In this document: one piece after another, positions 31,094-64,000 of the stretch
How positions within the stretch are numbered: position 1 is the stretch's first letter
How the letters are laid out: every line of letters begins with the position of its first letter
From: an uncultured Bacilli bacterium
Lineage (GTDB): Bacteria; Bacillota_I; Bacilli_A; RF39; UBA660
Assembly (NCBI GenBank): GCA_963929435.1
Contig: CAWVIV010000014.1
Span: 40,349 to 104,348 of the forward strand
DNA: 64,000 bases
Direction of reading: 5' to 3'
Made by a program: the position numbers and the translations under genes
The notes under the pieces: model-generated
Database searches by the model: none
Seen by the model: the letters and a program-made list of their open reading frames with translations, nothing else
What the model was told of the DNA's origin: nothing

Positions 31094-31108
31094 AATATAA
31101 AAATAAAA

Positions 31109-34126: not shown

Positions 34127-34134
34127 GGGGACTT

Positions 34135-36651: not shown

Positions 36652-36842
36652 ATTATTTTGTATTGGTTCTTGGAACATAGCCCTATTGTTAGTAAAAAGA
36701 ATATATAAGTAGTCAAATGGAGGATGAATTATGGAAAATATAAGAATTAGTGAAACGTGTAGTTTTGGTGATGAAAGTATAGAAATTAAGTGCGAAGGTA
36801 TTCCTTTGAGAAAAAAATATTGATGAAGAAGAAGTTAGACGT

Positions 36843-37691: not shown

Positions 37692-37699
37692 ATAGAATT

Positions 37700-38962: not shown

Positions 38963-39073
38963 ATAGAATTTATTGATTTATAAAGTTCAAGTGTGATATA
39001 TTATAGTTGTAATGAAGTTTTAGTGGGCGTGTTTTTTAATACGTCCTTTTTTATTTTTAAGCGGGGTGATTAA

Positions 39074-40090
39074 ATGGTTGAATTAGAAGATAAAAGTCGG
39101 TTAAAACCTATGTTATTTGTTGATGAAATGATTTCTTATTTAAAAAATAAGAATATAAAGTTTAATTATATTAGTGAAAACGATGCTCTTAAGTATTTGA
39201 AAAGCAATAATAATTATTATAATTTAACATCATATAAACATAATTTTGAAAAATATATGTTTGATGGAAGATTTGTTGATAAATATATTGATTTAGATTT
39301 TGCATATTTAAAAGACTTGTCTATTATTGATTACAGAGTTAGATTAGTTTTGTTTAAGATGATTATAAATATAGAACATTATTTAAAAATGAAAATATTA
39401 AATACTATTGAAAATATAGATGAAGAGGATGGTTATAGAATAGTTAATTTATATTTAGATAAGGATTTTAATAGTGACAAATTTCCTAAAAAACTACATA
39501 ATAGTATTTTTAAAAAAGTTGGAAGTGAATACTATCAAAAGATATTTTCTAAATATGATATTGATAAAGATAAGAAACTTGAAAATATTCCTATATGGGA
39601 GTTTCTTGAGATTATTACTTTTGGAGAACTTGTGAATTTTTATGAATTTTATACTAAAGAATATGGTTTAAGAGAAGAAAGTAAAGATGTATATATACTT
39701 CGGGATATTGTTAAGTTAAGAAATGCAGTTGCTCATAATTCTTGTATTTTAAGTGATTTAGGAAATAAAAATAATAATTATCCTATATCATATAAAATAA
39801 TTAATTTTTTAGAATCTTGTGATGTTGGTAAAAAAATGAGAATTAAAAAGTTAAGTAATTCAAGAATTAAGCAAATTACATATACACTATATATGTTTAA
39901 TAAAATTGTAACAAGTGATGGTATTAAAGAAAATGTTATAAATGAGATTAATGATTTGTTTTATAATAGAATAATTTATCATAAAGAGTATTATAATAAT
40001 AATGAACTATTAAAATCAGTATATGCTTATTTTGAAAAAATAATTGAAAAATTTTATGTTACAGTTCAGATAGAACATGACAAAAATTAG
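39074..40090 (+). CDS. Abi_2 family (AbiD/AbiF-like) abortive-infection protein; last 10 codons supplied by the IS66-like insertion
   Basis: IDLDFAYLKDLSIIDYRVRLVLFKMIINIEHYLK and the hallmark KLRNAVAHNSCI. The IS left end begins at 40058, inside the ORF. Confidence 0.75.
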   Translation: MVELEDKSRLKPMLFVDEMISYLKNKNIKFNYISENDALKYLKSNNNYYNLTSYKHNFEKYMFDGRFVDKYIDLDFAYLKDLSIIDYRVRLVLFKMIINIEHYLKMKILNTIENIDEEDGYRIVNLYLDKDFNSDKFPKKLHNSIFKKVGSEYYQKIFSKYDIDKDKKLENIPIWEFLEIITFGELVNFYEFYTKEYGLREESKDVYILRDIVKLRNAVAHNSCILSDLGNKNNNYPISYKIINFLESCDVGKKMRIKKLSNSRIKQITYTLYMFNKIVTSDGIKENVINEINDLFYNRIIYHKEYYNNNELLKSVYAYFEKIIEKFYVTVQIEHDKN

Positions 40091-49575: not shown

Positions 49576-50955
49576 ATGTTGAAAGAGAATATTTGGAAGA
49601 AGTATGATGCAGTAGAAATTTCTAAAGTTTTTGAGATGGGTGAAGACTATAAAGAGTTTTTATCTTTATCTAAGACTGAAAGAGAAGGGAATAAGGAAAT
49701 TATTAAACGTGCAGAAGGTAAAGGTTTCCACAATATTGTGGATTATATTAATGGGAATAAGTCTTTAAAACCAGGAGATAAGATTTATGCTGATAATAGA
49801 GGTAAAGCAGTTATTTTATTTATAATTGGAAAAGACTCTATTACTAAGGGTATGAATATATTAGGGGCTCATATTGATTCTCCTAGACTTGATTTAAAAG
49901 CTAATCCTTTATATGAAGATACTGATTTTGCTTATTTTGATACACATTACTATGGTGGTATTAAGAAATATCAATGGACTACTATTCCTTTAGCACTTCA
50001 TGGTGTTATTGTTAAGAAGGATGGTACTAAGATAGATGTTAATATAGGGGAAAGTGATGATGATCCTGTATTTTGTGTAACTGATTTACTTCCTCATTTA
50101 GCAGGGGAACAAATGAAGAAGAATGCTAGTAATTTAATAGAAGGTGAAGCTTTAGATGTTTTAATTGGTAATATGCCTTTAAAAGGAGAAGATAAAGAGG
50201 GGGTAAAAGCTAATGTACTTTCTATATTAAAAGAGAAATATGATATATCTGAAGATGACTTCTTATCTAGTGAAATAGAAGTAGTTCCTGCAGGTAAGGC
50301 TCGTGATATGGGATTTGATAAGAGTATGGTTCTATCTTATGGACAAGATGATAGAAGTTGTGCTTATTCATCACTTATGGCAATACTAAGCTCTGAAGTT
50401 ACTGATAAGACTCTATGTTGTATTTTAGTTGATAAAGAAGAGATAGGTAGTGTTGGTTCTACTGGAATGGGCTCTCGTTTCTATGAAAATACTATAGCAG
50501 AGATTTGTCATTTGTTAGGTGAAGATAGTTTTGTTAGTGTTAGAAGAGTTTTATCTAATTCTCGGATGTTAAGTAGTGATGTTAATGCAGCATATGATCC
50601 ACTTTATGCTAGTGTTATGGATAAACGTAATTCATCTTATCTAGCTCGTGGTTTAGTATTCTGTAAATATACAGGTTCTCGTGGTAAGAGTGGTAGTAAT
50701 GATGCTGATGCTGAGTTTATTGCAGAGCTTAGAAATATTTTAGATAGTGATAATGTAAGTTATCAAATATCTGAACTTGGTAAAGTAGATGCTGGTGGTG
50801 GTGGTACTATTGCCTATATCCTTGCTAACTATGATGTTAAAGTAATAGATGCAGGAGTTGGAGTTTTAAATATGCATGCACCATATGAAGTTACTAGTAA
50901 AGTAGATATATATGAAGCATATCGTGGCTATTTAGCATTTTTGATGAAAGCATAG
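49576..50955 (+). CDS. M18-family aminopeptidase
   Basis: GAHIDSPRLDLK, YGGIKKYQW, DKEEIGS and NMHAPYE motifs. 459 aa. Confidence 0.8.
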   Translation: MLKENIWKKYDAVEISKVFEMGEDYKEFLSLSKTEREGNKEIIKRAEGKGFHNIVDYINGNKSLKPGDKIYADNRGKAVILFIIGKDSITKGMNILGAHIDSPRLDLKANPLYEDTDFAYFDTHYYGGIKKYQWTTIPLALHGVIVKKDGTKIDVNIGESDDDPVFCVTDLLPHLAGEQMKKNASNLIEGEALDVLIGNMPLKGEDKEGVKANVLSILKEKYDISEDDFLSSEIEVVPAGKARDMGFDKSMVLSYGQDDRSCAYSSLMAILSSEVTDKTLCCILVDKEEIGSVGSTGMGSRFYENTIAEICHLLGEDSFVSVRRVLSNSRMLSSDVNAAYDPLYASVMDKRNSSYLARGLVFCKYTGSRGKSGSNDADAEFIAELRNILDSDNVSYQISELGKVDAGGGGTIAYILANYDVKVIDAGVGVLNMHAPYEVTSKVDIYEAYRGYLAFLMKA

Positions 50956-50980
50956 AGTATTGTTTATACAATGCTCTTTT
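50954..50980 (+). terminator. Terminator of aminopeptidase gene
   Basis: AGAGTATTG-tttata-CAATGCTCT followed by a T-rich run. Confidence 0.65.
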
Positions 50981-50990
50981 ATATTTTTTG

Positions 50991-51166
50991 TAGCAAAATA
51001 GGCCTTTTTACATATTTTAATGTAGAGGTGAATATTATGAATGAGCGAAGAGTAACTGGTGTGGTGGTTGATGCTGGACATGGAGGAATAGGAGTATCCC
51101 AAAAATAGGGAAATGACTATGAATGCTGATAAATACAAGGAAAAGAGATACTTTAGTAAGAAAAGT
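50991..51166 (+). repeat. att-like repeat copy 1: 96-bp amidase 5' segment (50991-51086) plus 80-bp conserved island left end (51087-51166)
   Basis: The 96 bp is identical by eye to 62585-62680. The whole 176 bp matches 59051-59226 with 4 mismatches. The truncated ORF reads MNERRVTGVVVDAGHGGIGVSQK*. Confidence 0.9.
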
Positions 51167-51209
51167 GTCTTTTTTAGTGGTATAATAGCTTGTGAGGTGA
51201 AATTAATTA

Positions 51210-51779
51210 ATGGATGAAAGAACATTTGTGGAATTAGGAGTAAAATTAACTGAAGTTGCTACAAGAAATGGCGCAGCTTTAATTACAGATAGAATTCGTA
51301 CTGCGAAAGCAAAAAAGGAAAGTAAAGAAATAATTAATGAACTAGAAGAAATTATATCAGATTTATTATCGGACAAATCTGAAATTCAAAGAATAGCTCA
51401 GGCTTATGAACAAGAACTAGTTTCTCAAAAGATTACAGAGGAAGATATAAGGTATATTACAGATAATTTATTACCACTATTTACTGAATTTATTCCTGAT
51501 AAAGATAAAAATCAAATCGAACAATTAAAGAAAATTTTATCTGTAGAAACTTTAACAATTATGCAATTAATTGGTTTTAATTACAAACATGCTATTGGAG
51601 AGCCTTTAACTTTACTTTGTAGAAAGTATATTGAATCCAATATTCCTATGGATTCAAAAATAAATGTTGATTATACAATGGCTATGGCAACACTTGCTAA
51701 AGATAAAGAAGCTACAAAAAGATTTTACAATTTACTTGGTAGAGAAATGCCTGAAGAGAATAATTCAGATGAAATATGA
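51210..51779 (+). CDS. Hypothetical helical protein (189 aa), first gene of island A
   Basis: Extended -10 TGGTATAAT at about 51177 and GTGAGGTGA RBS. A terminator CACCAT-aaataata-ATGGTG plus T-run follows. No motif recognised. Confidence 0.55.
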   Translation: MDERTFVELGVKLTEVATRNGAALITDRIRTAKAKKESKEIINELEEIISDLLSDKSEIQRIAQAYEQELVSQKITEEDIRYITDNLLPLFTEFIPDKDKNQIEQLKKILSVETLTIMQLIGFNYKHAIGEPLTLLCRKYIESNIPMDSKINVDYTMAMATLAKDKEATKRFYNLLGREMPEENNSDEI

Positions 51780-51897
51780 TAAAAAGTTTTGATTTTGAGC
51801 ACCATAAATAATAATGGTGTTTTTATTTTAAATGAAAGCGAGGTAGATATTTATAAATTTAAATTATGCAATATTTAGAAGTGAACCTATTTTTACA

Positions 51898-53130
51898 TTG
51901 AATGATTTAGCACAGATAGGTTCTCATAATAAAAGGGAGAAGAAAGCTTATAATTCTAATCCTGATATAAATAAAAATTTAAGTAAAAATAATATAGAAT
52001 TAGTACCCTTGACAGATAAATATGTTAAGGGTTTTTATAATTTAACTAAAGAATATAAAAAAGAATATGATGAGAGAATGAAAACAGAACGTGAAGATAG
52101 AAAGAAAAATTTAAAACAGATGTTAGATAAGTCAAGAAATGTAGTTGCAGATGAATTATTATTTACTGCTAAATTTGAATTTTTTGATAATATAACAATA
52201 GATGATATAAAAGAGTGGTCTAATACTTGTATGGAGTTTGTTTATGAAGATTTGGGTTATAAAAAAGAACAAGTTTTGCATAGTGTAATTCTTTTAGATG
52301 AAAAGACACCACATATTCATTGTGTAGTTGTTCCTTTAGTTAGAAAGTTTTATAATAGAACTAAAACAGAAAGATATACTATATCTAAGAAACAATACAT
52401 TAAAAATAATATTCATTTATCAGAATTATAAGATAAATACTATCAAAGACTAACTAGTAAAGGTTATGATTTAGAACTAGGTATTAAAGGAAGTATAGCT
52501 AAACATCAAAAAGTCAGAGAGCTTAAAAAAACTACTAGATATTATGAACAGAAAGTAGATGTTTTAAACTCTAAAATAGATGAAACTATGAAGGAATTTA
52601 ACGAGAAAAAAAACTACCCAAAAATATTCCTTTTAATAAAACTCATGGTCTAGTAGAAAAGGAAACTTTTGATAGTATGAATAAAGTAATTAAAGAAACA
52701 AAAAAACGATATATTTAGAGCCAAAAATTAAAACTCTTTTTAATGAAGTAGATAGTTTTACCAAAAGCCATCAGAGTTTAGAAAAAGAAAATCAATATAT
52801 GAAAAGGAGATTAAAGCATTGACTACTAGAAATCAAAATCTTACAAAAGAAAATAATACTTCAAAATCCTACATTAAAGCCATATTATAGGCAATAAAGC
52901 ACTTTTTTAGGTATTTATTACAAATTGGTAATGAACCTACAAAAGAAACTACTGCACGCGAGATAAAGTAATATTATGATAATAAAGATTTTGATAGTAA
53001 TGATGCTTATGATATTTCAAATGACACTACTAAAGAAGATGAACTATTTGATTATGATAATATAGCTTGTTATTATAAAGCAAAAAAAGATAACGTTGGA
53101 GATAAAGATGATTTTGAGTTAACAAGGTAG
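51898..53130 (+). pseudogene. Decayed MobV/Pre-family relaxase
   Basis: The N-terminal 177 codons have MobV features (NPDINKNLSKNN, HIHCVVVPL). An in-frame TAA at 52429 interrupts ..LSEL*DKYYQRLTSKGYDLELGIKGS.., and the rest continues in other frames after A-run frameshifts. Confidence 0.6.
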
Positions 53131-53193
53131 ATAGAATTATGGTATACTAGTGATATAAAGATTGGTTTAAGTGTCAGAAGTGGAGTGAATTTA

Positions 53194-56100
53194 ATGAATC
53201 AAGAAATTTCTAATAAGGAGAAAATAATATCACTATATAAATTTATTATAGAGTTTTGTAAGAGCAAACAAAAAATTATATGTAACGACAATGATTATTT
53301 ATGGAAATATCAGATTAGTAATGTTCCACAAGATAATGAAAATATTAGTATATTGTATAAGGACAAAGTCGAATTGGAAGATGAGATACTTGATGATAAT
53401 AGTTTGGATTACTTATTAAAAGTTCATAAGCCTGAATTTGAAAAATGTCCTGAACCTGATGCATCTTTTAAAAAGTGGCTTGTAAAAGGTTGGGATTCTT
53501 ATAGAAATATTGTTCAAGTTAAAGAGAAAATAGAATATGAAAATAATCAGAACAATTCTGAAAAAGTAATAGAAATGTTTACAGATGATTTGGAACGTGT
53601 GAGTGCATATAAAGTATGGCTTGAAAAAAGAAAACAATGGGTTGAAAGGCAATTAAAAATAGAAAGGACTAGAGATTTCTTTACTATTTTATATATGAGG
53701 TATGTAGACTTACAACGCGATTCTGAAACTACTGAGTTAGTACTTGCTAATGGTTATATAACTGATAAGAATAACGAAAATATATGTCATCCTGTGTTGA
53801 CAAAAAGACTAAACATGAATTTTGATGCTAATGAAAATACTATATATGTAATGGACACTGACGCTAGAACTGAATTATACTCTGAACTGTTTCAAGTTAT
53901 GGATGATATTGATCTTGATTCATTAACTACATTAAATTCTGATTTGATGGTACATGATTATCATCCAATGGATAGAAATGATACACCAAACTTTTTAAAA
54001 ATACTTGTTCATAACTTGAGTTCTGACAGTAAATATGTAGATGGTCAAGATGATATTTCTGAAAATAGAATTAATATGTTTTATAGACCATGTTTAATTA
54101 TGCGAAAAAGAATGGATGGAACAATAAAAACTACTGAACAGATTATTAAAAATATAGAAGAAACTGGTTTTATTCCAAGCCATTTGATAGATATCATTAG
54201 TGGTGGCAAATTAGAAAAACCTGAGGAAACTGAAGAAACTATTGAGGAATCGTTAGCTAAAGTCGGTGGAGAGAGTGTTGATATATTATTATCTAAAGAA
54301 GCAAATAGGGAACAGTTAGAAATTGCAAAAAGAATAGGTAAATACAATGCAGTATTGGTGCAAGGGCCTCCTGGTACTGGGAAAACGCATACAATAGCAA
54401 ATTTAGTTGGACACTTTTTGGCTCATGGGGAAAGTGTTTTGGTTACTAGTTATACAAAAAAAGCTTTAACTGTTTTAAAAGACAAATTGCCAAAAAACAT
54501 TCAAAGTTTATGTGTGTCTGTTTTAGATGATTCAAATGAAGATATGGAAGACTCTATTGATGGTATAACGGATTATATGTCTAGGACCACTTCATTTGAA
54601 TTAAAACATAAAATGGAAGAATTGAAAGAAAGTCGATTAAATGTTATTAAGGAATTGGCTTCTGTAAGAAGAAAAATATTTAATATTATTAATAGTGAAT
54701 ATAGAAGTATTGTTTTAGATGGCGAAGAAATTTCTCCTATAGATGCGGCTTGCTTTGTTCAACAAAATAAAGAAAGATTGTCTTATATTGATGGTAGAGT
54801 AAAATTGTATTCTCCATTACCGTTAACAATAAATGAGTTTAATTATTTATATGGAACAAATTCTAAAATTTCTTATGATGAAGAAAAAGAACTTAATTAT
54901 AAATTGCCAGCTCCAGCAAAATTAATTCATCCTGATAAATTTGAAAAATTATTAGCAATAATTGATAATTCAAAGAAGAAAATTGAGGAAATTGGAAATT
55001 TAAAAAAATGGACTATACAGATTAATGATGATTTGTTTTTTGAAACTAATTTTGGTAATTTTTATATTACAAATTATAATGCTAGTGATATAACTGAATT
55101 GAAAAATTATATTGATGGTTTTTCTAATTTTGATAATTGGGTAAAAGCAGTTTGTTGTGATGGAAAAAGAGGTGGTGCTCATAAAAAGAGATGGCTAGAT
55201 TTAATTAATGAGATAAAAACTACTTCAAAAATAAGTGAAGATTTTATATATAATCATTTTGGTAAAAAAGTTTCTACAAAAAATAATAGTAATGTTTGTG
55301 ATTATAAAATAGGTTTGCGAAAATTAAAAAAAATCTTGGATAGAAAAGGGAAAATTGGTAAAATCGATTTAATTTTAAATAATGAATTTAATTTATTGCT
55401 ATCAGAAGTTCAAGTTAATGGTAAACAAATTACAACAAAAGAAGAATGTGATTATGTACTTGATTATATTGATTTAATAGAAGCGAGAAGTAAACTTGCT
55501 AATTTATGGGATAATCTGTTATCTTGCTATGGAGTTACAAAATTTTATGATTTAGATAATTCAGAGCCGGAAAGAGTTGCTGAAAAATGGATTGATATTA
55601 TAGTTAAATATCTAAATTGGTATGATAAGGAATATAAGAATTTAACTAAATACTTGGAAAAAGCCAATTTTCCTTATCAAATTATATTACAATTGAATGA
55701 TTTAGATAAAGATATTGATCATATAAATAAAATATTTGATTCTTTACAAAATGTAATTCCTTATTTGTTGAATATATGCGAAGCAAAAATTGCTATTGAT
55801 AACGCCAATCAAGAAATAGAAAATTCAGTAACTGTTTTGGATGACAACGGTTTAATAAATTCTTCAGTTTGTATTAATTTAAAAAAATCATTGAAGAATT
55901 ATGATAATGAAAAATATTTAGAGTTTTTTAGACAATTAGAAGATTTATATCAAAAATACGAAATTTTAAGTAAAAGAAATTCTTTATTGGAAAAATTAGA
56001 ATCAGTTGCACCACAATGGGCAAGCGATATTAGAAACAGGCGTGGTATTCATGGTTTAAGTGAAACTCCTACTAATATTCAAGACGCTTGGAAATTTAAA

Positions 56101-58419
56101 CAATATTTAAGTATTTTAGATGATATGACAAAAGAGTCATTAGATGATTTGCAAAAAACGAGTCAACGGTTAAGTTCAAACTATAGGAAAATCACTGAAA
56201 AATATGCAGGGATATGTGCTTGGTATAATTTGTTGGCAAGAACTGAATGTGATATTGATATGAAACAAGCGTTGAAAGGATGGGAGCTAACAATTAAAAA
56301 AATTGGTAAAGCTACTGGGAAAAACGCTCCTAAATATAAAGCAAAGGCTCGTGAATTAATGGCAAAATGTCAAAATGCTGTTCCTTGTTGGATAATGCCT
56401 ATGAATAAAGCTATTGAATCTTTAAAACCTGGTGAAAACGAATTCGATGTTATTATCATTGATGAAGCGAGTCAATCAGATACATCTTCTTTAGCAATAG
56501 CTTATTTTGCAAAAAAAATGATAGTTGTTGGAGATGATAAACAAGTAAGTCCTATGGCAGTTGGTGTAGAAGTTGATAAGATTAATGCCTTAGAAAAAAT
56601 GTTTATTAAAGATAAAATTCCAAATTCTCATTTATATAGTGCTAAAACTTCATTATATGATATTGCTGCTACAACTTTTCAACCATTAATGTTAAAAGAG
56701 CACTTTAGATGTGTGCCAGAAATAATTGGATTTAGTAATATGCTTTCATACGATTTTAAAATAAAACCACTAAGAGATTCGAATGATACTGATTTATTGC
56801 CTTCTGTTATAAATTATAGAGTACAGGGTAAGAGAATTGGAAAAACTAATAGAGTAGAAGCTGAAACTATTATTTCATTTATAAAAGGTTGTTTAAATAT
56901 TAAAGAGTATGAAGGTAAAACCTTTGGGGTAATTTCATTATTAGGTGATGAACAGGTTAGATTAATTGAACAGTTATTATATCAATATATTGATATACGT
57001 GATATTGAAGAAAGAAAGATTTTGGTTGGAAACGCTTCTAATTTTCAGGGAGATGAACGAGATGTTATTTTCTTATCAATGGTAGATAGTAGCTCAGATA
57101 AAGGTCCATTACCTTTGCAAGGAAATGGAGTTGAAGATTCAGTTAAAAAGAGATACAACGTTGCTGTTAGTAGAGCACGTGATCAAGTATGGGTGGTTAA
57201 TTCATTAGATTCAGCAAATGATTTAAAATCGCTGGATATTAGGAAAAAATTATTAGATTATGCCACAAATCCTAAGGCATTTTTATTACAGTCAGATGAA
57301 GTAAAAAACAAATCTGATTCAGTTTTTGAAGAGCAAGTTGCAAAAAAATTGATATCTCAAGGTTATCATATTGTTCAACAATATCCAGTTGGAGCCTATA
57401 GGCTAGATATAGTTGTAATATGTGAAAATAGAAAGATTGTAATAGAATGTGATGGAGAAAGGTATCACACTGGCGAAGAAAAAATCAAGGAAGATATGCA
57501 ACGTCAAGCTATTTTGGAACGTATTGGTTGGAGATTTATAAGAATAAGGGGAAGTCAATTTTTTAAAAACCCTGAAGCTACAATGAATCAAGTTTTTGAA
57601 GAATTAGAATCATATAAAATTTATCCAGAAAGTATAAATATAAGTAATGAAGAAAGAACAAGTGAACTGTTTGAAAAAGTAAAAAATGAATCTTCAAAGT
57701 TTTTATTAGAAATACATCAAAAGGATAATGATGGCAATTTGGATGATATATTGTATGCTTTGGATAATAAATCTTATAAAGTTTCTGATAGTCAAAAAAA
57801 TAATGATACTTTATTAAAAAACAAAATTGATTCAATTAGTATAAAGCAAAATAAGCAAGTTAATGAAACCATATTTGATAAAGATAGTGATTTATTAGAT
57901 TTAGAGTTTGGTGAGAGTCAATTTAAATATATGGTTTTATTTAGTGAGGGAGTAAGTAGAAAGGATATTTCATTATATTATAATGTTGCCTATGATACGG
58001 TAAAGAAATCTTTGCAGACGGTTTCTGAAAAATATCATCAACCTTATGTTGAAAAATGTATAAGTAGCTTTATTGAAAAATATAAAGGTAGTACTGAATA
58101 TGATGAAATAATTAATATGTATTTGAAGTGGAATCAAAATAGAGAAAATGAAAAGTTTAATGATAATGTTTTTTCGACAACTTCTAATTTAGAATTAAAA
58201 CATGATAATGATGATTTTATAACTGATTTAAAGAAAAATAATTTTAAATACATTGATAATAGAGAAAAATCTGGAATTGTTTGGATTATTCATAATGATT
58301 CAACTTCTGAATTAATAAAGAGTGTTTTAAGTAAATATAAGTATCCATATACATTTGAGCGAAGAGGCTCAATTGTTACTGAAAATAAACCTGCATGGAG
58401 AGTAATGTTTAAGTATTAG
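53194..58419 (+). CDS. Giant (about 1741 aa) DUF4011-type SF1B (Upf1/Mov10-like) helicase fused to a Vsr/DUF559-like PD-(D/E)xK endonuclease and a C-terminal extension
   Basis: Walker A GPPGTGKTH (about nt 54364) and motif II VIIIDEASQ (about nt 56449) are separated by about 700 aa. Further motifs: VGDDKQVSP, LKEHFRCVPEIIGFSN, FQGDERDVIFLSMV, NVAVSRARDQVWVV. Nuclease module: YRLDIVVICENRKIVIECDGERYH..GWRFIRIRG. ATG 53194 is preferred (8 nt after GGAG); GTG 53185 is possible. Confidence 0.85.
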   Translation: MNQEISNKEKIISLYKFIIEFCKSKQKIICNDNDYLWKYQISNVPQDNENISILYKDKVELEDEILDDNSLDYLLKVHKPEFEKCPEPDASFKKWLVKGWDSYRNIVQVKEKIEYENNQNNSEKVIEMFTDDLERVSAYKVWLEKRKQWVERQLKIERTRDFFTILYMRYVDLQRDSETTELVLANGYITDKNNENICHPVLTKRLNMNFDANENTIYVMDTDARTELYSELFQVMDDIDLDSLTTLNSDLMVHDYHPMDRNDTPNFLKILVHNLSSDSKYVDGQDDISENRINMFYRPCLIMRKRMDGTIKTTEQIIKNIEETGFIPSHLIDIISGGKLEKPEETEETIEESLAKVGGESVDILLSKEANREQLEIAKRIGKYNAVLVQGPPGTGKTHTIANLVGHFLAHGESVLVTSYTKKALTVLKDKLPKNIQSLCVSVLDDSNEDMEDSIDGITDYMSRTTSFELKHKMEELKESRLNVIKELASVRRKIFNIINSEYRSIVLDGEEISPIDAACFVQQNKERLSYIDGRVKLYSPLPLTINEFNYLYGTNSKISYDEEKELNYKLPAPAKLIHPDKFEKLLAIIDNSKKKIEEIGNLKKWTIQINDDLFFETNFGNFYITNYNASDITELKNYIDGFSNFDNWVKAVCCDGKRGGAHKKRWLDLINEIKTTSKISEDFIYNHFGKKVSTKNNSNVCDYKIGLRKLKKILDRKGKIGKIDLILNNEFNLLLSEVQVNGKQITTKEECDYVLDYIDLIEARSKLANLWDNLLSCYGVTKFYDLDNSEPERVAEKWIDIIVKYLNWYDKEYKNLTKYLEKANFPYQIILQLNDLDKDIDHINKIFDSLQNVIPYLLNICEAKIAIDNANQEIENSVTVLDDNGLINSSVCINLKKSLKNYDNEKYLEFFRQLEDLYQKYEILSKRNSLLEKLESVAPQWASDIRNRRGIHGLSETPTNIQDAWKFKQYLSILDDMTKESLDDLQKTSQRLSSNYRKITEKYAGICAWYNLLARTECDIDMKQALKGWELTIKKIGKATGKNAPKYKAKARELMAKCQNAVPCWIMPMNKAIESLKPGENEFDVIIIDEASQSDTSSLAIAYFAKKMIVVGDDKQVSPMAVGVEVDKINALEKMFIKDKIPNSHLYSAKTSLYDIAATTFQPLMLKEHFRCVPEIIGFSNMLSYDFKIKPLRDSNDTDLLPSVINYRVQGKRIGKTNRVEAETIISFIKGCLNIKEYEGKTFGVISLLGDEQVRLIEQLLYQYIDIRDIEERKILVGNASNFQGDERDVIFLSMVDSSSDKGPLPLQGNGVEDSVKKRYNVAVSRARDQVWVVNSLDSANDLKSLDIRKKLLDYATNPKAFLLQSDEVKNKSDSVFEEQVAKKLISQGYHIVQQYPVGAYRLDIVVICENRKIVIECDGERYHTGEEKIKEDMQRQAILERIGWRFIRIRGSQFFKNPEATMNQVFEELESYKIYPESINISNEERTSELFEKVKNESSKFLLEIHQKDNDGNLDDILYALDNKSYKVSDSQKNNDTLLKNKIDSISIKQNKQVNETIFDKDSDLLDLEFGESQFKYMVLFSEGVSRKDISLYYNVAYDTVKKSLQTVSEKYHQPYVEKCISSFIEKYKGSTEYDEIINMYLKWNQNRENEKFNDNVFSTTSNLELKHDNDDFITDLKKNNFKYIDNREKSGIVWIIHNDSTSELIKSVLSKYKYPYTFERRGSIVTENKPAWRVMFKY

Positions 58420-58517
58420 AGTTGTATTACTACTTGTATTTTAGCATAGTGAAGATTTAAAAATTACAGAGTTTTTATTAAGTGATTGACTTTATTATGA
58501 GAGGAATGAATTTTATA

Positions 58518-58769
58518 ATGAAACAAGATTTTAAATATGAGATTATAAATAATATAGGAGTTATTTCTGAAAATAATACGTGGGCAAAGGAATTAAATCG
58601 TGTTAGTTGGAATGGTAATGAACCAAAATATGATATTAGAGATTGGTCAAAAAATCATGAAAAAATGGGCAAGGGCATTACTTTATCTGAAGAAGAACTT
58701 AGAAGTTTAAAAAAAATATTGGATGAAGAAATAAAACTATTGGACGAAGAGGCTAGTAACGACGATTAA
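58518..58769 (+). CDS. PC4/YdbC-like ssDNA-binding protein
   Basis: MKQDFKYEIINNIGVISENNTWAKELNRVSWNGNEPKYDIRDWSKNHEKMGKGITLSEEE closely parallels my recollection of Lactococcus YdbC (FKFEIVEHL..KEINRVSFNG..KFDIR.WS..H.KMGKGITLS.EE). Confidence 0.7.
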   Translation: MKQDFKYEIINNIGVISENNTWAKELNRVSWNGNEPKYDIRDWSKNHEKMGKGITLSEEELRSLKKILDEEIKLLDEEASNDD

Positions 58770-59050
58770 ACTAAAATTCCATTTTAGTAACACGCTATGA
58801 TATTGGCAGAGCTAATAACGCTGTGTGCAAAGGAAGTTCCCTTTTGACTCCTAAATTAACGACAAATTATAAAGTGCTATAATATAATTCTGTTGAATAA
58901 AAATAGCCTTATTGCCTAAAAAGCAAAAAGGTTATTTTTTATTAAATTTTAGGTTTTATTGTTGTTAATATTTTACTTAGATTTTCTAATGTTTTATAAT
59001 TAGAAAGTCTTTTATTTTTTTTAGATATTAAGCTTAATGCTTATAAATAG

Positions 59051-59226
59051 TAGCAAAATAGGCCTTTTTACATATTTTAATGTAGAGGTGAATATTATGA
59101 ATGAGCGAAGAGTAACTGGTGTGGTTGTTGATGCTGGACATGGAGGAATGGGATTATCCCAAAAATAGGGAAATGACTATGAATGCTAATAAATACAAGG
59201 AAAAGAGATACTTTAGTAAGAAAAGT
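59051..59226 (+). repeat. att-like repeat copy 2: 96-bp amidase 5' segment (59051-59146) plus 80-bp conserved island left end (59147-59226)
   Basis: One mismatch (59126) against copies 1 and 3 in the 96-bp core. It is preceded by AAATAG, as copy 3 is. Confidence 0.9.
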
Positions 59227-59286
59227 ATATTTTATTATAAAAATATTAGCACTAATCTATATTAGGTAACTATTTGTAAAAATATG

Positions 59287-59329
59287 TTGACAACCCTAAA
59301 TATTAGTGATAAATTAATTACTAATATTT
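59287..59329 (+). promoter_or_regulatory. Promoter with overlapping inverted-repeat operator at the head of island B
   Basis: TTGACA (59287), 17 nt, TAAATT (59310), with a TGa extended -10. AAATATTAGT (59298-59307) is inverted as ACTAATATTT (59320-59329). Two more ATATTAG half-sites lie at about 59243 and 59262. Confidence 0.5.
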
Positions 59330-59343
59330 GAAGAGGTGGAGTT

Positions 59344-59433
59344 ATGAGTGTGATTTTTAAAGGAAAATACAATATTAAAACTATTATTATGATTACAGTA
59401 TTTTCTTTAATCATGCTTTTTATTTTTAAATGA
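59344..59433 (+). CDS. 29-aa hydrophobic peptide (MSVIFKGKYNIKTIIMITVFSLIMLFIFK)
   Basis: GAGGTGGAG RBS 4 nt upstream. Single TM segment. A terminator follows. Confidence 0.45.
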   Translation: MSVIFKGKYNIKTIIMITVFSLIMLFIFK

Positions 59434-59443
59434 CATTAATATT

Positions 59444-59472
59444 GAAGCTTATAATAGCTTCTGTTTTTGTTT
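59444..59472 (+). terminator. Terminator after small peptide gene
   Basis: GAAGCT-tataat-AGCTTC followed by TGTTTTTGTTT. Confidence 0.55.
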
Positions 59473-59551
59473 AGTAAGAGATATTTAGGTAATTGCATTA
59501 ATAGTTGGTTAAGTTTACATCTTAACGAATATATAAATGGAGGTGATTAAT

Positions 59552-60766
59552 TTGAAAAAATGTAATTTTGATTATTTATTTAATACTCCTAATATTGAGA
59601 ATATAGAGACTTTTATTAATCAACTTACTAATAAGTATATCTTTGAATTAAAAAAAATAGAATTGTTAAATAGTAAGATTTTATTAAGCTACGATAAAGA
59701 TAAATATATTGAATTAATAAAGAAACATAAAAATATTGTATTGTCACTTATTAAAGAAGTTATCAACTTTTTTCCACAGTTATCTAATGTGCCTCATATT
59801 GTTTTTATACATGGTAGTTTTGCTAAAACTTTAAACAGGATTAATAGCGATATAGATTTAAATATTTTATATCCTAATAATTTTAAAAGTGAAATATTGC
59901 CAATCGAAGAAATAATTTCAATTATTTTGCAAAAAGTTGTTGGATATAGTGGTAGGGATAAAATACATACTATGATGCTTTATACATGTAATGATTTGAA
60001 TGATAGTTTGGTTGAATCTACTGAAGAATGTACTATTTCGTTTCCAAACAAACAAATTTATAAGTATTACTGTCGACCAAATTATGATGAAATAATGTAT
60101 AAAATAAAAAATTCTTCTAGAGATTATAATGATTTTTTAAATTATATAAGAAATAATATTACTACTGGTAAGTGTGAAGAATGGTGTTATTCTTATGAAC
60201 AATTAATTACTAATTGTGAGGACTGCAATATATATGATGCGTTAAATAGTATTGATGAAGATAATGTAGAAAGAACGAATTATATTAATTATAATAAGTT
60301 AATAGAAAAATTAAAGAAGAAAATGGATGAATATAGTTTTGATATTAATAACGTAGATACAATTAGTGATGTTAATCATAATTTAAAGGTTAAAAATTTA
60401 GGATTTATATACAAAACATTATCATTAATAAGAAGATATTTATTTATTAATGAAAATCCAGTAAATGGTTTGGATTTCTTTGAAATATTCGATAAACAAG
60501 AATTTATTAAGTTATTTTCTAGCGAAGAGTTGGAGAATATAAAAACTAATATTTTTAGATATCTTTGGCAACTTTCAAGACTGGAAAATTTGTTTATAAG
60601 TAGGAATATTAATTTTAGTTCTAGAAATTATGATAGTTTTGAAACTGAATTTGTTTGTCAATTATATAATAATTTATATAATGAAGATTTAATTTGTGTT
60701 CAAAATGAATCTACTGATAATCTTCATAAATCTTTGAAAAAAGTATTAACAAGAATTGAAATATAG
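59552..60766 (+). CDS. Pol-beta-superfamily nucleotidyltransferase with long helical C-terminal region
   Basis: FIHGSFAKTLNRINSDIDLNILY matches G-S-x10-D-x-D. TTG 59552 is preferred (6 nt after GGAGGTG); the listed ATG 59537 is the alternative. Confidence 0.7.
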   Translation: MKKCNFDYLFNTPNIENIETFINQLTNKYIFELKKIELLNSKILLSYDKDKYIELIKKHKNIVLSLIKEVINFFPQLSNVPHIVFIHGSFAKTLNRINSDIDLNILYPNNFKSEILPIEEIISIILQKVVGYSGRDKIHTMMLYTCNDLNDSLVESTEECTISFPNKQIYKYYCRPNYDEIMYKIKNSSRDYNDFLNYIRNNITTGKCEEWCYSYEQLITNCEDCNIYDALNSIDEDNVERTNYINYNKLIEKLKKKMDEYSFDINNVDTISDVNHNLKVKNLGFIYKTLSLIRRYLFINENPVNGLDFFEIFDKQEFIKLFSSEELENIKTNIFRYLWQLSRLENLFISRNINFSSRNYDSFETEFVCQLYNNLYNEDLICVQNESTDNLHKSLKKVLTRIEI

Positions 60767-60774
60767 GAGGAAAT

Positions 60775-61860
60775 ATGAGTAAAATAGTAATGACGATGCC
60801 AATAAAGCCACAGAAAGAAACTAATATAGGTATGTATATTGCTCCAACATTGATGAATGTTTTGAGTGATATTCTATCATGTGATAGTGTGATGGCTATT
60901 AATCTATTAAATACATATAAAGATAAGGATTCAGAATTAAAAACTTTTATAGATGATTTAGATCGTCAAGGAATAATATATAATAATTTATTTATTGATA
61001 AAGATCATGCCTGTGAAATATTATCTTTAATTCAAGAATTAGTATATGATGGTTTTGTGAAAAAATCGAATGAAGAAATTTTTAGATGTGATTGTGGTAA
61101 AGTTGATATTTTGAAACAAGGAATTAACTCTAATATAAGTAAATTATACTATGAAAAAAATGGTACATATTATTGTAAAGAGTGTGGAAGTGAATGTAAA
61201 TCTTTTAGAGAAGAGGTATTGACGCTTGAATTGTCAAAAGATATTGATGATTCAATATTAATAGTACCAACATTTTTAAAAAATGATGTTAAGCATTTGA
61301 GTAAAACTTTTAAAGGTGGCAAATTACTTATTTCAAAGCAACGCGATACAGGTTATCAACTAATGGTTGATAATAAAAAATTTAATATTGATATTGATTT
61401 TCTTTGGACTAATTATTTTAGGCTTTTTGATAACGAACAGATTATAATGCTTGCTAGTAATCATCAAATATATCAAATGTATTTATTAAATTATTTAAAT
61501 AAAATTATTTCTGGCAATGAGATTTGTTTTGTAGCTAATCCTTATATGAATAAATCAAATGTTATGAATCCGTTAGCAGAATATGAAAAAACAGAAGATA
61601 GTATTTATAAAAAATTGTTTATTCTATATAATTTAAAGTGGAGAAACAAAAATTGTGATTGGTCACCTAGTATAATAGATTTTTTAAGTAATATAAGTAC
61701 TACAAGAAGAAATAATTTATATAGAGTTATAGAGAGTTGTGGAAAGAAAATTGATGAAAGTAGGCTACCTTTAGATTTATATTTAGAAAGTATTTTACAA
61801 AAGGAAATAAATATGCAACGAAATATTCCTGAATCAAAAAAGTTAGTTAAAAAAATGTAA
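60775..61860 (+). CDS. Zinc-ribbon protein resembling a degenerate class Ia aminoacyl-tRNA synthetase catalytic core (MetRS/IleRS-like), HIGH/KMSKS absent
   Basis: AGGAGG RBS. Motif order: ELVYDGFVKKSNEEIFRCDCGK, YYCKECGSEC, LLISKQRDTGY (cf. ISRQR.WG), DIDFLWTNYF (cf. YVWFDA). The HIGH position reads NIGMYIAP. Similarity was judged by eye only. Confidence 0.45.
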   Translation: MSKIVMTMPIKPQKETNIGMYIAPTLMNVLSDILSCDSVMAINLLNTYKDKDSELKTFIDDLDRQGIIYNNLFIDKDHACEILSLIQELVYDGFVKKSNEEIFRCDCGKVDILKQGINSNISKLYYEKNGTYYCKECGSECKSFREEVLTLELSKDIDDSILIVPTFLKNDVKHLSKTFKGGKLLISKQRDTGYQLMVDNKKFNIDIDFLWTNYFRLFDNEQIIMLASNHQIYQMYLLNYLNKIISGNEICFVANPYMNKSNVMNPLAEYEKTEDSIYKKLFILYNLKWRNKNCDWSPSIIDFLSNISTTRRNNLYRVIESCGKKIDESRLPLDLYLESILQKEINMQRNIPESKKLVKKM

Positions 61861-61893
61861 TAGTATTAAAATAGTTATGGAGATGGTGATATT

Positions 61894-62493
61894 ATGTATA
61901 GTGTGTTATTTAGTAAAATTGAATTTGGTATGGATTTAGTAGTAGAACGGTTAAAAGAGTTTGTTAAACCTGATTATAAAGTAGCAATTTTTCCATGGGC
62001 TTTTCCTGTCGAGATAACAAGTGAAGAATTTGAGAAAGAGTATTTTCCTATAGATGGTAGAAGATATAATAAATACTATACTGAATTAAAAAAAATAGGT
62101 ATTAGTAAAGAAAATATTAGAGTATGTAACCCTTATAAAGATACTAGAAATGATCTTATTGAAATTATCCAAAATAGTGATATTTTACTTTTGCCAGGTG
62201 GAAATCCTGAAATGTTTTTTAAAAAAGTTTTACATGATACGGAATTAATATATTATATTAAACATTTTAAAGGAATAATTATTGGTGAGAGTGCAGGGTG
62301 TGAGTTACAATTAAAAAGATATTTTATTACTGCTAAAAATAATTATTATAAGTACTTTGCATTTTATGATGGATTTGGAGTGTTAGATGATCCTTTTTAT
62401 ATGGATGTCCATTCAATAAACAATAAGAGATATTTAGCAAAATTACAAGAAGTTGCTAATGATAAAAATAAAACGTGTATATGCTATTTTTGA
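61894..62493 (+). CDS. Peptidase S51 (dipeptidase E/cyanophycinase-like) family protein, 3' end frameshifted
   Basis: ILLLPGGNPEMFFKK and IIIGESAGCE (nucleophile elbow). The family-typical C-terminus RVYAIFDDGALIYNRDS..FK* is in another frame up to 62584. One extra A in GATAAAAATAAAACG (62461-62475) explains this. Confidence 0.7.
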   Translation: MYSVLFSKIEFGMDLVVERLKEFVKPDYKVAIFPWAFPVEITSEEFEKEYFPIDGRRYNKYYTELKKIGISKENIRVCNPYKDTRNDLIEIIQNSDILLLPGGNPEMFFKKVLHDTELIYYIKHFKGIIIGESAGCELQLKRYFITAKNNYYKYFAFYDGFGVLDDPFYMDVHSINNKRYLAKLQEVANDKNKTCICYF

Positions 62494-62584
62494 TGATGGT
62501 GCACTTATTTATAATAGAGATTCTAGTAAATTAGAAATATTTGGTAATGTATTAACTTTTGTACCAAAATGTAATTTTAAATAG

Positions 62585-62680
62585 TAGCAAAATAGGCCTT
62601 TTTACATATTTTAATGTAGAGGTGAATATTATGAATGAGCGAAGAGTAACTGGTGTGGTGGTTGATGCTGGACATGGAGG
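62585..62680 (+). repeat. att-like repeat copy 3 (native 5' end of the intact amidase gene)
   Basis: Identical by eye to 50991-51086. It continues into the intact ORF. Confidence 0.9.
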
Positions 62681-64000
62681 TGCGGACCCTGGTGCTGTAA
62701 GTGGTGGTTTACAAGAGAAAGATTTTACATTAGAAGCTTCTTTATATATGGCTGATAGATTAAAAGAGTTAGGTATACCTGTTGTTTTAACTAGAGATTA
62801 TGATGAGAATATAAGTAGAACAGAAAGACTTAGACGTGCTAATGAAGCTTTTGGTGGTAGTCCTAATGCTATACTTATATCTAATCATATAAATGCTGGA
62901 GGTGGAGAAGGGGCTGAAGTTATTTATGCTTTACGTAATAATTCTACTTTAGCACAATCTATCTTGGAAGAAATAGGTAGTGAAGGACAAATTATGCGTA
63001 AATACTATCAAAGAAGACTTCCTGAAGATCCATCAAAAGACTACTATTACATTATTAGAGAAACTACTCCTATGCAGTCAGTGTTAGTAGAATATGGTTT
63101 TATTGATAATGCTAATGATAGAGTTAAATTACAAAATGATTTATTAAACTATGTGGAAGCGGTAGTTAGAGCGATAGCAGAGTATGCTGGTGTTCCTTAT
63201 ACTCCTCCTGAGGGTAGTGGTAATAATTTCTATACTGTAGTAAAAGGTGATAGCTTATGGAGTATTGCTAATCGTTTCGGGGTTACAGTCCAAGCTTTAA
63301 GAGATGCTAATAACTTAACTAGTGATGTGTTAAGTGTAGGACAAATTTTAAGAATACCTGGTAGTAATGAAGGTGATGAAATTGTTCCTCCAAGTGGTAA
63401 TGTCACTTATACTGTGCAAAGAGGAGATAGCCTTTGGAGCATAGCAAGTCGTTATGGAATAAGTGTTAATGATTTAAGACGTGCCAATAATCTTACTAGT
63501 GATACTTTAAGTATAGGGCAAGTTTTAATAATCCCAGGAGTAGGTAGTGGTAATGATAATATTACAGGACCATCTACTACTTATACTGTTGTAAAAGGTG
63601 ATAGCTTGTGGAGCATTGCCAATCGTTTTGGAGTTACAGTCCAAGCTTTAAGAGATGCTAATATTTTAACTAGTGATGTGTTAAGTGTAGGGCAGGTATT
63701 AACTATACCAGGTGTTAGTGGAGAAGAAGATAATGGTGAAGATGAGGATAATGGAGCAGTCTTTTATTATACTGTAGAGCGGGGAGATAGTCTTTGGAGT
63801 ATAGCAAGACGTTTTGGCGTTACGGTTCAAGAAATAAGAGATGCTAATGATTTAACGAGTGATACTTTAAGTGTTGGACAATCTTTAATAATTCCAGGGA
63901 TTAGTGCAGGAGATGACTTAGAAGATAATGAAGAAAATGATACAGTTCCTACTACTTATACAGTAGCCTCTGGTGATAGTCTATGGAGCATTGCTAATCG
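62631..64000 (+). CDS. N-acetylmuramoyl-L-alanine amidase (Amidase_3) with at least 5 C-terminal LysM repeats, 3' end outside window
   Basis: Not in the ORF track because no stop lies inside the window. AGAGGTGA RBS. VVVDAGHGGADPGA, NHINAGGGEGAEV, then repeated Y(T/Y)V(V/Q/E)(K/R)GDSLWSIA.R(F/Y)G modules from about 63231. Confidence 0.9.
   Translation, partial: MNERRVTGVVVDAGHGGADPGAVSGGLQEKDFTLEASLYMADRLKELGIPVVLTRDYDENISRTERLRRANEAFGGSPNAILISNHINAGGGEGAEVIYALRNNSTLAQSILEEIGSEGQIMRKYYQRRLPEDPSKDYYYIIRETTPMQSVLVEYGFIDNANDRVKLQNDLLNYVEAVVRAIAEYAGVPYTPPEGSGNNFYTVVKGDSLWSIANRFGVTVQALRDANNLTSDVLSVGQILRIPGSNEGDEIVPPSGNVTYTVQRGDSLWSIASRYGISVNDLRRANNLTSDTLSIGQVLIIPGVGSGNDNITGPSTTYTVVKGDSLWSIANRFGVTVQALRDANILTSDVLSVGQVLTIPGVSGEEDNGEDEDNGAVFYYTVERGDSLWSIARRFGVTVQEIRDANDLTSDTLSVGQSLIIPGISAGDDLEDNEENDTVPTTYTVASGDSLWSIAN

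Follow-up and report, generated by a model that had tools for sequence, protein, structure and literature searches.

Tandem recombinase-less islands at an amidase gene of an uncultured gut Bacilli bacterium as probable defective members of a serine recombinase element family

Results

A triplicated amidase 5′ end delimits two tandem islands

The window analysed here is a 64,000-nucleotide stretch (positions 40,349 to 104,348 of contig CAWVIV010000014.1, GenBank assembly GCA_963929435.1) from an uncultured Bacilli bacterium. Near its right end two tandem gene islands, A (51087-59049) and B (59147-62583), lie between a chromosomal aminopeptidase gene and a gene for a cell-wall hydrolase (hereafter the amidase). 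Here we describe this locus and propose, with a probability of about 0.72, that it is the attachment site of a family of integrative and mobilizable elements (IMEs) of uncultured gut Bacilli, and that the two islands are defective members of this family lying beside a usable attB site. Intact members of the family encode a large serine recombinase (LSR) and a MobV relaxase. Coordinates refer to the window and its forward strand unless indicated, and L numbers designate loci from related genomes.

The left flank is formed by the aminopeptidase gene (49576-50955; Peptidase_M18, Pfam 3.8e-80), which is syntenic at 92-95% nucleotide identity in L007 and L012 and has a terminator hairpin at its end (50954-50977, terminator scan). 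Repeat finding, three-way alignment and self-BLAST identified three direct copies of a 97-nt segment downstream of this gene, at 50990-51086 (copy 1), 59050-59146 (copy 2) and 62584-62680 (copy 3). Copies 1 and 3 are identical, copy 2 carries a single mismatch (T for G at 59126), and a 45-nt sub-pattern of the repeat matched the window exactly three times, against 0.00 expected from 100 shuffles. Each copy comprises the 5′ untranslated region (UTR) and ribosome-binding site (RBS) of the amidase gene together with codons 1-17. Copy 3 opens into the intact target gene (62631-64000, ATG at 62631), which encodes an Amidase_3 domain followed by five LysM domains (Pfam) and leaves the window at its end; amino acids 1-200 are 100% identical in L007. 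Copies 1 and 2 remain homologous for a further ~87 nt, termed Y, giving 184 nt at 97% identity in total; the Y modules of the two islands differ at 51090, 51094 and 51128. The stubs at both copies translate as MNERRVTGVVVDAGHGG plus six codons before reaching a stop. The hexamer AAATAG stands directly 5′ of copies 2 and 3. An earlier reading of this DNA, made from its letters and open reading frames (ORFs) and referred to below as the sequence-only reading, had described a triplicated 96-bp segment, AAATAG before the second and third copies and early-stop stubs after the first two; all of this was borne out, the segment being 97 nt by alignment with 0 copies expected by chance.

Four diverged units of ~154 nt with a spacing of ~177 nt (63231-63921) correspond to the LysM domains of the amidase and are unremarkable.

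In the Y module of island A (51081-51175), a predicted P′ half-site of attP (TGGAGGAATAGGAGTATCCCAAA) is joined by a conserved stretch and then by a hairpin of 14 bp and a U tract. Y is followed by a 189-amino acid ORF (51210-51779) with no match in Pfam or PADLOC and no homologue in the fetched loci, and by a pseudogene of a MobV (Mob_Pre) relaxase (51859-53127), in which Pfam detects Mob_Pre on the first 177 amino acids. The intact Mob protein of L074 aligns over all 431 amino acids by tblastn; compared with the Mob protein of L011 the pseudogene is 66% identical with many in-frame stops, its first 177 amino acids being 94% identical. Next comes a gene for a 1744-amino acid SF1 helicase (AAA_11/AAA_12) with a C-terminal REase_MTES_1575 nuclease (53185-58419), a candidate defence protein by Pfam and PADLOC (PADLOC matches to PDC-S37, 1.3e-61; MkoC, 2e-42; Hhe, 1e-38), and a gene for a 95-amino acid PC4-like protein predicted to bind single-stranded DNA (58482-58769; Pfam PC4, 3.4e-12). 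The island closes with a conserved non-coding module of ~160 nt, termed Xel (58784-58945; 80-84% identical in L004, L005, L006, L008, L016 and L017), and with a reverse-strand remnant of an XRE-type helix-turn-helix (HTH) gene that covers residues ~127-158 (58945-59037; tblastn E = 3e-4).

Island B has a Y module of its own (59141-59233), with the predicted P′ half-site, the conserved stretch and a weaker hairpin. Its cargo encodes a 409-amino acid Pol-beta-type nucleotidyltransferase (59537-60766; Pfam Polbeta/NTP_transf_2), a 361-amino acid protein whose sole match is a sub-threshold zinc ribbon (60775-61860) and a Peptidase_S51-like protein (61894-62583) with a frameshift in an A run at ~62465-62480. 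In the repaired translation the Pfam match to Peptidase_S51 reaches profile position 202 of 206 with a score now above the cut-off, and the true stop of the gene (TAG, 62581-62583) abuts copy 3. No relaxase was found in island B.

Pfam detected no recombinase or transposase in either island, tblastn with the family LSR described below gave a best E value of 0.06 within the window, and no serine or tyrosine recombinase related to the site was present anywhere in the 64 kb. The sequence-only reading was therefore right that the islands encode no recombinase and that their relaxase gene is decayed; its view of the cargo as defence genes is supported for the 1744-amino acid helicase-nuclease alone, through the match to PDC-S37. 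Megablast of the 11.7-kb region against PLSDB plasmids and INPHARED phages returned no match, and hence no free plasmid or phage source.

Two further observations concern island B. Just 3′ of its Y module lies a 29-codon hydrophobic ORF (59345-59434; MSVIFKGKYNIKTIIMITVFSLIMLFIFK), within a block of ~200 nt that recurs at 89% identity inside the L011 island (L011:5987-6195); this ORF may encode a small membrane peptide or toxin. In L007 (8886-9599) as in island B, the gene nearest to the amidase upstream region encodes an S51 peptidase, a shared position that may be coincidence or recurrent cargo. The idea that the S51 gene beside copy 3 is captured host DNA was considered, and with the window and L007 proteins only 26% identical it permits no conclusion.

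Relatives carry a large serine recombinase at the same gene

Relatives were gathered by scanning metagenome contigs with a 28-mer of the core (the repeated amidase 5′ segment) and one genome per species with the amidase catalytic domain. The 83 loci obtained come from gut metagenome-assembled genomes (MAGs) labelled Candidatus Onthousia, Candidatus Scybalousia, uncultured Bacilli or 'Tenericutes'. Clustering of all ORFs in these loci to find recurring proteins revealed a protein of ~531 amino acids encoded directly 5′ of the amidase body in L008, L010, L016, L065, L071 and L074. It is an LSR with Resolvase, Recombinase, Zn_ribbon_recom and DUF4368 domains (Pfam; DUF4368 at 7e-06). In the loci that bear it the amidase is without its first ~14 codons, and the junction reads ...TTTGGGACTTTCTGCTTCCTTCA-CA-TGGAGGTGCGG..., where TTTGGGACTTTCTGCTTCCTTCA is the P arm of the element and the B′ arm of the host gene follows the CA. 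The same P arm-CA-B′ junction occurs at the contig ends of L009, L014 and L015, and the LSR is also present in L087-L104.

Whole elements were recovered in L074 (9.6 kb) and L093 (8.3 kb). Both run from the amidase 5′ end plus Y through Mob_Pre, cargo, a reverse-strand XRE HTH gene, an 86-amino acid ORF, HTH_36 and the LSR to the amidase body. Intact members of the family are 8-11 kb long, in the order attL, Y, MobV, variable cargo, Xel, a repressor-like XRE gene, 86-amino acid ORF, HTH_36, LSR and attR.

Targeting was tested independently with the LSR sequence alone as query. Homologues form at least 120 protein clusters at 67% identity or more, and four clusters were looked up in public assemblies, yielding 18 genomic places. 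The P arm, CA and amidase B′ arm follow straight after the LSR in 15 of the 18; in the other three a Bro-N gene comes first and an amidase fragment lies 1 kb beyond. Mob_Pre stands at the far left end wherever these loci extend that far. The LSR protein P0007 recurs without change next to five distinct amidase alleles, joined at CA in every case, which indicates recent movement between hosts. Judged from these junctions, LSR targeting appears to be single-site. No tyrosine recombinase was found at the site in the window or in ~100 related loci, a single 153-amino acid SAM-like fragment being seen, in the L004 cargo, and we found no amidase-targeting serine recombinase IME described in the literature, where the search returned nothing specific.

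In LSR-occupied genomes the amidase body is an intact ORF of 543-549 codons, 85-98% identical to that of the window (L008:9953-11599, L009:659-2305, L014:22-1668, L016:9953-11581, L071:9992-11203). No stop codon interrupts this frame as it extends upstream into the P arm. In L008 a TTG overlaps the LSR stop, and in L071 the P arm itself contains an ATG in frame. With a different N-terminus, the 'disrupted' amidase may therefore still be made. In two occupied loci a 730-amino acid ORF and then Xel come after a NUDIX-like gene that in L012 directly adjoins the core (L008:3656-6292, L016:3653-6289). L008 and L016 seem to have lost the left part of the element together with the amidase 5′ end, which would leave the LSR element trapped at the site.

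The exchange is confined to a CA dinucleotide

The left junction of L093 is GGTCA/TGAAGGACACGGAGTATCCCAAA and its right junction is TTTGGGACTTTCCGATTCCTTGACA/CGGAGGTTC (slashes mark the junction), giving attL as GGTCA/TGAAGG... and attR as ...TTGACA/CGGAGG. Since the two partners have different bases on both sides of CA, the exchange is confined to the CA of the histidine codon in DAGHGG. The attP sites reconstructed from L093 and L074 are palindromic at 19/30 and 17/30 positions, respectively. Among the LSR-bearing relatives L008 is the closest, its amidase body being 96.6% identical; when the L008 P arm is joined to the window's two Y starts, the count is 18/30, while random positions in the same DNA give 8.9±2.6 of 30 (maximum 19 in 5000 trials). 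These palindromic reconstructions indicate that the first ~25 nt of Y are the predicted P′ half-site of the element family.

In the window the CA lies at 51079-51080 (copy 1), 59139-59140 (copy 2) and 62673-62674 (copy 3). By this alignment copies 1 and 2 are assigned as putative attL sites, each joining the host B arm to an element P′ arm, and copy 3 as a putative intact, vacant attB, whose B′ arm is identical at 29/30 positions to the B′ arm at the L008 attR. Neither attR nor a P arm was found in the 64-kb window. The bulk of the 97 nt is plain 5′ sequence of the amidase gene (UTR, RBS and codons 1-14), copied along with a ~25-nt host half-site; it is not a recombination core, and the CA exchange point sits at its right edge. 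The sequence-only reading had seen an attL/hybrid/attR pattern around an unusually long att core, and both parts of that description have to be replaced: the pattern is attL, attL, attB with no attR, and the length of the repeat is that of duplicated gene sequence rather than of a crossover site. What stands is its broader proposal that related elements lie in tandem at one site in the amidase 5′ end and regenerate the 5′ end of their target. The islands differ from IMEs proper in two features. The attL and attR of an IME share only the 2-bp crossover; here attL occurs twice, and on the right the islands end in copies of the host B arm. An IME also encodes its own LSR, which is found in the LSR-bearing relatives and not in island A, island B or the window. 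Nor do the features of a tyrosine-integrase island with a long att core apply, the exchange being confined to CA.

The islands lack the recombinase end of intact elements

Homology of island A to intact elements covers the Mob gene, Xel and, on the reverse strand, the final ~30 codons of the XRE gene (59037-58945). Past this remnant the homology ends, and ~35 nt of amidase-upstream DNA and the core follow; the rest of the XRE gene, the 86-amino acid ORF, HTH_36, the LSR and the P arm are missing. Island A is a decayed element of the family, and island B keeps only the Y end and cargo. The missing recombinase is thereby accounted for: intact members carry the LSR beside attR, and the window islands have lost that end. 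The breakpoint of island A is also found in L004, L007 and L013 when these are aligned to intact L008 and L016; the remaining core fusions are of the L005/L006/L017 type, of the L011/L027 type and island B's own. With at least four distinct breakpoints, loss of the recombinase end and gain of a core must have happened at least four times. A single-island version is present in L011 (Candidatus O. faecavium), which carries core plus Y, an intact Mob gene, cargo, Xel, core and an intact amidase.

Comparison across relatives shows sequence identity changing abruptly at CA. L018 is 97.6% identical to the window in the 80 nt to the left of CA and 75.7% identical in the 300 nt to the right; L027 is 89% identical to the left (95% over core positions 18-97) and 70.6% to the right. 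Relatives with native cores are 67-74% identical on the left and 70-76% on the right. At its attL, L027 keeps its own unrelated amidase 5′ end (MDYRIVVDAGHGG) beside a Y module 91% identical to that of the window, and its left and right copies have only ~14 nt in common around CA; the chimera was therefore made by site-specific, not homologous, exchange. These comparisons show that the core travels independently of the gene body, with a foreign core fused exactly at CA in L018 and L027.

Occupancy was compared among loci whose amidase body is at least 73% identical to that of the window (most at least 82%). Six are in the LSR-occupied (attR) state (L008, L009, L010, L014, L015, L016) and seven have an intact core (the window, L007, L011, L012, L013, L017, L018). 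L007 has 95% nucleotide identity to the window in both the M18 and the amidase genes; the 3.4-kb gap between the two holds entirely different genes (HTH, metallophosphatase/hydrolase, GNAT and S51 peptidase), followed by Xel, core and amidase, and attL is absent from it. The relatives do not all share one arrangement, occupancy and cargo both differing among them.

Conserved non-coding modules at the element ends

A profile of Y matches only at the attL of family elements. After the P′ half-site come the conserved stretch, the hairpin and the U tract, and the hairpin occupies the same position in the window, L093 and L074; at copy 1 it has a 14-bp stem (z = -4.2), and at copy 2 it is weaker. 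Y adjoins mob on its upstream side in intact elements, and both islands retain it, with its hairpin, upstream of the mob position. By position and predicted fold, Y could be a terminator of read-through from the amidase promoter, an origin of transfer (oriT) or both.

Xel is located between the cargo and the XRE gene in intact elements and is also present in L007 and L011. It contains a perfect inverted repeat (TATTGGC-N3-GCCAATA), a GGGAGTTCCC palindrome, a bidirectional terminator hairpin and a promoter-like TGnTATAAT extended -10 (TGCTATAAT at 58875-58883, promoter scan). RNAalifold applied to nine Xel copies found two compensatory pairs and a covariation term of +0.43, which makes no good case for a structured RNA; Xel is possibly a protein-binding site. 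A riboswitch or leader upstream of the amidase was considered as the cause of Xel and core conservation and discarded, with Rfam searches of the window and of L004-L006 finding nothing at the locus.

Further insertion sites in the amidase and the wider neighbourhood

The amidase of relatives shows a second, independent breakpoint after codon ~92 (..HINAGGGE), followed by a shared module of ~55 nt, termed Y2 (GTTTACTTACCATTACATAATTTGATTGGG..). No recombinase could be assigned to this breakpoint. It was seen at L004:746-805 and 4756-4814, L005 (reverse strand) 3628-3688, L091:11629-11910, L102:12631-12817, L048:7276-7569 and L053:2429-2704. The cargo after Y2 varies (AbiEi/AbiEii, PHP+AAA_21, AAA+subtilase, type I/IIG restriction-modification, DUF6119/Fic), and in L048 and L053 the island is flanked by a ~92-codon stub and an intact amidase. 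The common motif ATGCTGGAnnTGGAG raised the idea of one enzyme for the codon 17 and codon 92 breakpoints, which was rejected because Y2 bears no resemblance to the P′ arm. Deeper in the gene, a second LSR type (521-522 amino acids, without DUF4368), accompanied by small ORFs and an ASCH protein, splits the amidase at about amino acids 204-257 and leaves the LysM remainder downstream (L088-L090 and L092, 14075-15802; L024:17090-18652; L026:14928-16490; L074:18704-20266). With this second LSR type inside it, the amidase gene carries at least three distinct insertion sites.

An IS-rich stretch (25386-41574) lies far upstream of the islands. It includes DDE_Tnp_1 transposase genes (25693-27420; 27717-29003 and 31260-32765, both on the reverse strand), an IS1595-like ORF (37883-38953), an IS66 transposase gene (40117-41574, reverse strand) and duplicated DUF3048 genes. 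The IS66 copy sits between an Abi_2 gene and pta, two genes that are adjacent in L004. The only Rfam match at gathering thresholds is a tRNA (25386-25456, reverse strand). The finding that pta abuts attL in L093 suggested that 42.9-50.9 kb of the window might be older accreted DNA. No further core or Y remnants were found there, the DUF1848-M18 segment is syntenic in L007, and GH25 and M18 are also present in L012; accretion of this segment is not claimed.

Discussion

A model for the origin of the islands

We propose that an intact element would enter the amidase by a 2-bp exchange at the CA of the DAGHGG histidine codon, so that the gene body would end up on the right, at attR, and its promoter, RBS and first 14-15 codons on the left, at attL. 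Each island would then derive from such an element through loss of the recombinase end and gain of a host segment consisting of short upstream DNA plus core. The likeliest route would be an aberrant excision of the kind that generates lambda dgal, producing a circle whose sole attachment site is a hybrid B-P′; we infer this as the source of the right-hand core. The circle could re-enter by RecA recombination through the ~97-nt core, which would yield exactly the order core, Y, island, core and amidase, or it could do so as a passenger. In the latter case the landing site of an intact LSR element would be copy 3, the vacant attB on the right-hand side of a recombinase-less island. Recombination of the outer attL with the new attR would form a composite circle with an internal core-P′ junction, by which one or both islands could be excised and transferred. 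After integration of the composite in a new host, the helper could later excise alone from its internal attL and attR, leaving the old core fused at CA to the gene body of the new host and rebuilding attB. The chimeric cores on diverged amidase bodies in L018 and L027 lend such excision and transfer in cis with a helper indirect support. This composite-circle route uses only canonical LSR reactions and is the accretion and cis-mobilisation scheme of tandems formed by integrative and conjugative elements (ICEs) or IMEs with cis-mobilizable elements (CIMEs) (PMC5704250), for which CIME formation, accretion and cis-mobilisation are established (PMC5704250); moreover, LSRs of the TndX/TnpX type act without a recombination directionality factor (PMC5704250). 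RecA-dependent insertion and excision through the 97-nt repeats, as the sequence-only reading also envisaged, is plausible and would form one step of this model. Selection probably matters, with intact elements splitting the amidase from its promoter and start codon and defective islands restoring it; even so, the amidase bodies of the occupied alleles in L008, L009, L014 and L016 are intact.

Several observations weigh against this proposal. The 64-kb window contains no attR, LSR or P arm that would support present-day mobility of the islands; the right end of island B has no family-specific sequence. No attL occurs within 10 kb of the LSR in L008 and L016, and not every family member is a tidy element bounded by attL and attR. 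No contig was found that joins a recombinase-less island to an intact LSR element on its right. Scans of IMG/VR gave 0 matches to the reconstructed attP junction and to Y, and no circular attP junction was found in these viral contigs. We infer the core-creating step from topology only, and the outcome would be the same after a deletion between tandem paralogues or after homologous repair with an intact allele.

Alternative histories

An assembly artefact, in which repeat-induced mis-joining or collapsed strain variants produced a chimeric tandem, is unlikely, and we regard it as scarcely credible. The window is metagenome-derived and short-read assemblies do break at the repeat. Two independent short-read contigs with an identical aminopeptidase end 87 nt (a k87_... 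contig) and 30 nt into copy 1, respectively. We read these ends as de Bruijn breaks at k = 87 and at k-1, with k = 31 assumed for the Logan assembly; since real repeats produce breaks at k and k-1, they speak for a genuine repeat. The contig containing the window is 109.8 kb long and reported in two samples, the flanks of copies 1 and 2 are distinct and consistent in gene content, and L011, an independent MAG of another species, has the layout of stub, island, core and amidase on a single contig. Many other short-read contigs of the clade start or end in the core or at the attR junction (L018:1-98, L002:4305-4391, L003:4109-4138, and likewise the contig ends of L013, L014 and L015). Because the repeat breaks assemblies, arrays like that of the window are probably under-represented in MAGs. 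Taken at its word, the sequence-only reading would make the 96-97-nt repeat the att core of an unseen, tyrosine-type integrase encoded elsewhere, with two tandem elements bounded by attL, attI and attR. Direct repeats that flank both islands and regenerate the 5′ end of a gene are indeed typical of tyrosine-integrase islands (PMC5704250), but ~100 related loci carry no tyrosine recombinase by the site and repeatedly carry the LSR, the junctions of complete elements have only CA rather than 97 nt in common, and the left and right 'repeats' of L027 are unrelated upstream of ~20 nt from CA. We consider this version very improbable.

More weight attaches to a purely homology-driven hot spot, although we still think it unlikely: the islands would have spread only by RecA, through flanking genes or the 97-nt repeats, and the stubs would be inert scars. 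Identical 97-nt repeats and the conserved amidase and M18 genes offer ample homology, the window has no recombinase, and the islands are decayed. However, the stubs stop precisely at the LSR crossover beside a matching P′ half-site, which makes at least the origin site-specific, and the chimeras L018 and L027 break at CA within ~14 nt of shared sequence, too short for efficient RecA action. This history overlaps the best explanation for the latest steps and differs from it mainly in denying LSR-dependent re-mobilisation. Less probable, and in our judgement a poor fit, is a history in which an element entered the upstream one of two tandem amidases and a deletion then took out the recombinase, from the XRE gene to just short of the second copy, whose amidase stayed intact, the same being repeated for island B. 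Simple deletions would suffice for it, and tandem or fragmentary extra amidase copies do exist in L033, L034, L048 and L065. Yet there is just one amidase in L007 and L012, the close relatives with an intact site; the identity of copies 1 and 3 is 100% across exactly the core and gives way to unrelated sequence just upstream, unlike diverging paralogues; the deletions would have to recur at four or more breakpoints; and the foreign cores on diverged bodies in L018 and L027 would be left unexplained.

The reading we favour, of defective family members beside a usable attB, can be carried a step further. It is a speculative extension, and one we would not expect to hold, that the islands are recurrent, selected 'target-restoring satellites', whose hybrid B-P′ site and captured promoter and 5′ end would let them repair the amidase, keep a fresh attB available and spread with the TndX-like LSR and relaxase of a helper (possibly even by non-canonical attL x attB recombination). 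If so, the amidase 5′ end would be a self-renewing landing pad that accumulates defence cargo.

Our analysis resolves the paradox of att-like repeats without a recombinase by assigning the site to a previously undescribed, abundant LSR and MobV family, which comes from uncultured gut Bacilli with small genomes and whose attB, attP and crossover dinucleotide are defined from sequence alone. Although LSR elements as a rule interrupt their target and leave repeats of 2 bp, they can yield gene-restoring, recombinase-less islands with long repeats, and genome-island finders would misread such islands. One amidase gene is a multi-site hot spot that accumulates candidate defence genes. The locus offers a well-resolved example, from an uncultured clade, of accretion driven by an LSR and accompanied by restoration of the target gene, several of its steps being reconstructed.

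Comparison with known systems

The family resembles clostridial IMEs of the Tn4451/Tn4453 type, whose LSR is TnpX/TndX, in pairing a DUF4368-tailed LSR with a MobV/Mob_Pre relaxase (PMC5704250, PMC10083194), and likewise in its 2-bp crossover, very short true repeats, small mobilizable format and variable cargo. Most DUF4368 LSRs (the TndX-like clade) have multiple targets, and site-specific LSRs rarely carry the domain (0.73%; PMC10083194). On the junctions collected here the present family looks site-specific, a modest surprise, and such an enzyme is of practical interest for integrase mining. Unlike Tn4451/Tn4453, the family appears specific for one amidase codon (15/18 places) and the window islands carry no LSR.

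Composite staphylococcal cassette chromosome mec (SCCmec) elements and ccr-less pseudo-SCC elements at rlmH (orfX) of staphylococci also form cassette arrays at the target of an LSR (CcrAB or CcrC), some of them without ccr. They differ from the islands in belonging to a different LSR clade, in a target at the 3′ end of a gene, in repeats that are integration-site sequences of ~15 bp and not a regenerated 97-nt 5′ end, and in having no MobV relaxase. In lambda dgal and dbio, illegitimate excision picks up neighbouring host DNA at the cost of one end of the element, which there includes int/xis or late genes; the defective element has a hybrid B-P′ site, integrates through homology or a helper and forms tandems. 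This topology is the one inferred for islands A and B, the analogy being one of mechanism only, with no phage and with a serine enzyme here.

Island B, in retaining Y, is also reminiscent of iOriTs, minimal hitcher islands that have no relaxase or mating genes, possibly carry only an oriT and depend on helpers (bioRxiv 10.64898/2026.01.13.699239). Unlike iOriTs, which are integrative and delimited by att sites, island B also has no integrase, and Y is only a candidate oriT. A further parallel is with CIMEs, such as those related to ICESt1/ICESt3 of Streptococcus thermophilus and those in streptococcal IME-CIME tandems, in which decayed recombinase-less elements are stacked at the att site of an active family and, as would be expected of the islands here, leave together with an incoming helper (PMC5704250). 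Classical CIMEs, as defined by Pavlovic, Bellanger and Guedon, retain both the attL and the attR of a tyrosine integrase, their repeat being the att core. Here the enzyme is an LSR and the islands keep attL only: island B ends on the right in attB, island A in the next attL, and the right border is a duplicated host arm that rebuilds the full attB. In a further difference from classical CIMEs, it is the intact element that disrupts the target gene and the defective ones that restore it. The islands are CIME-like rather than members of the CIMEs.

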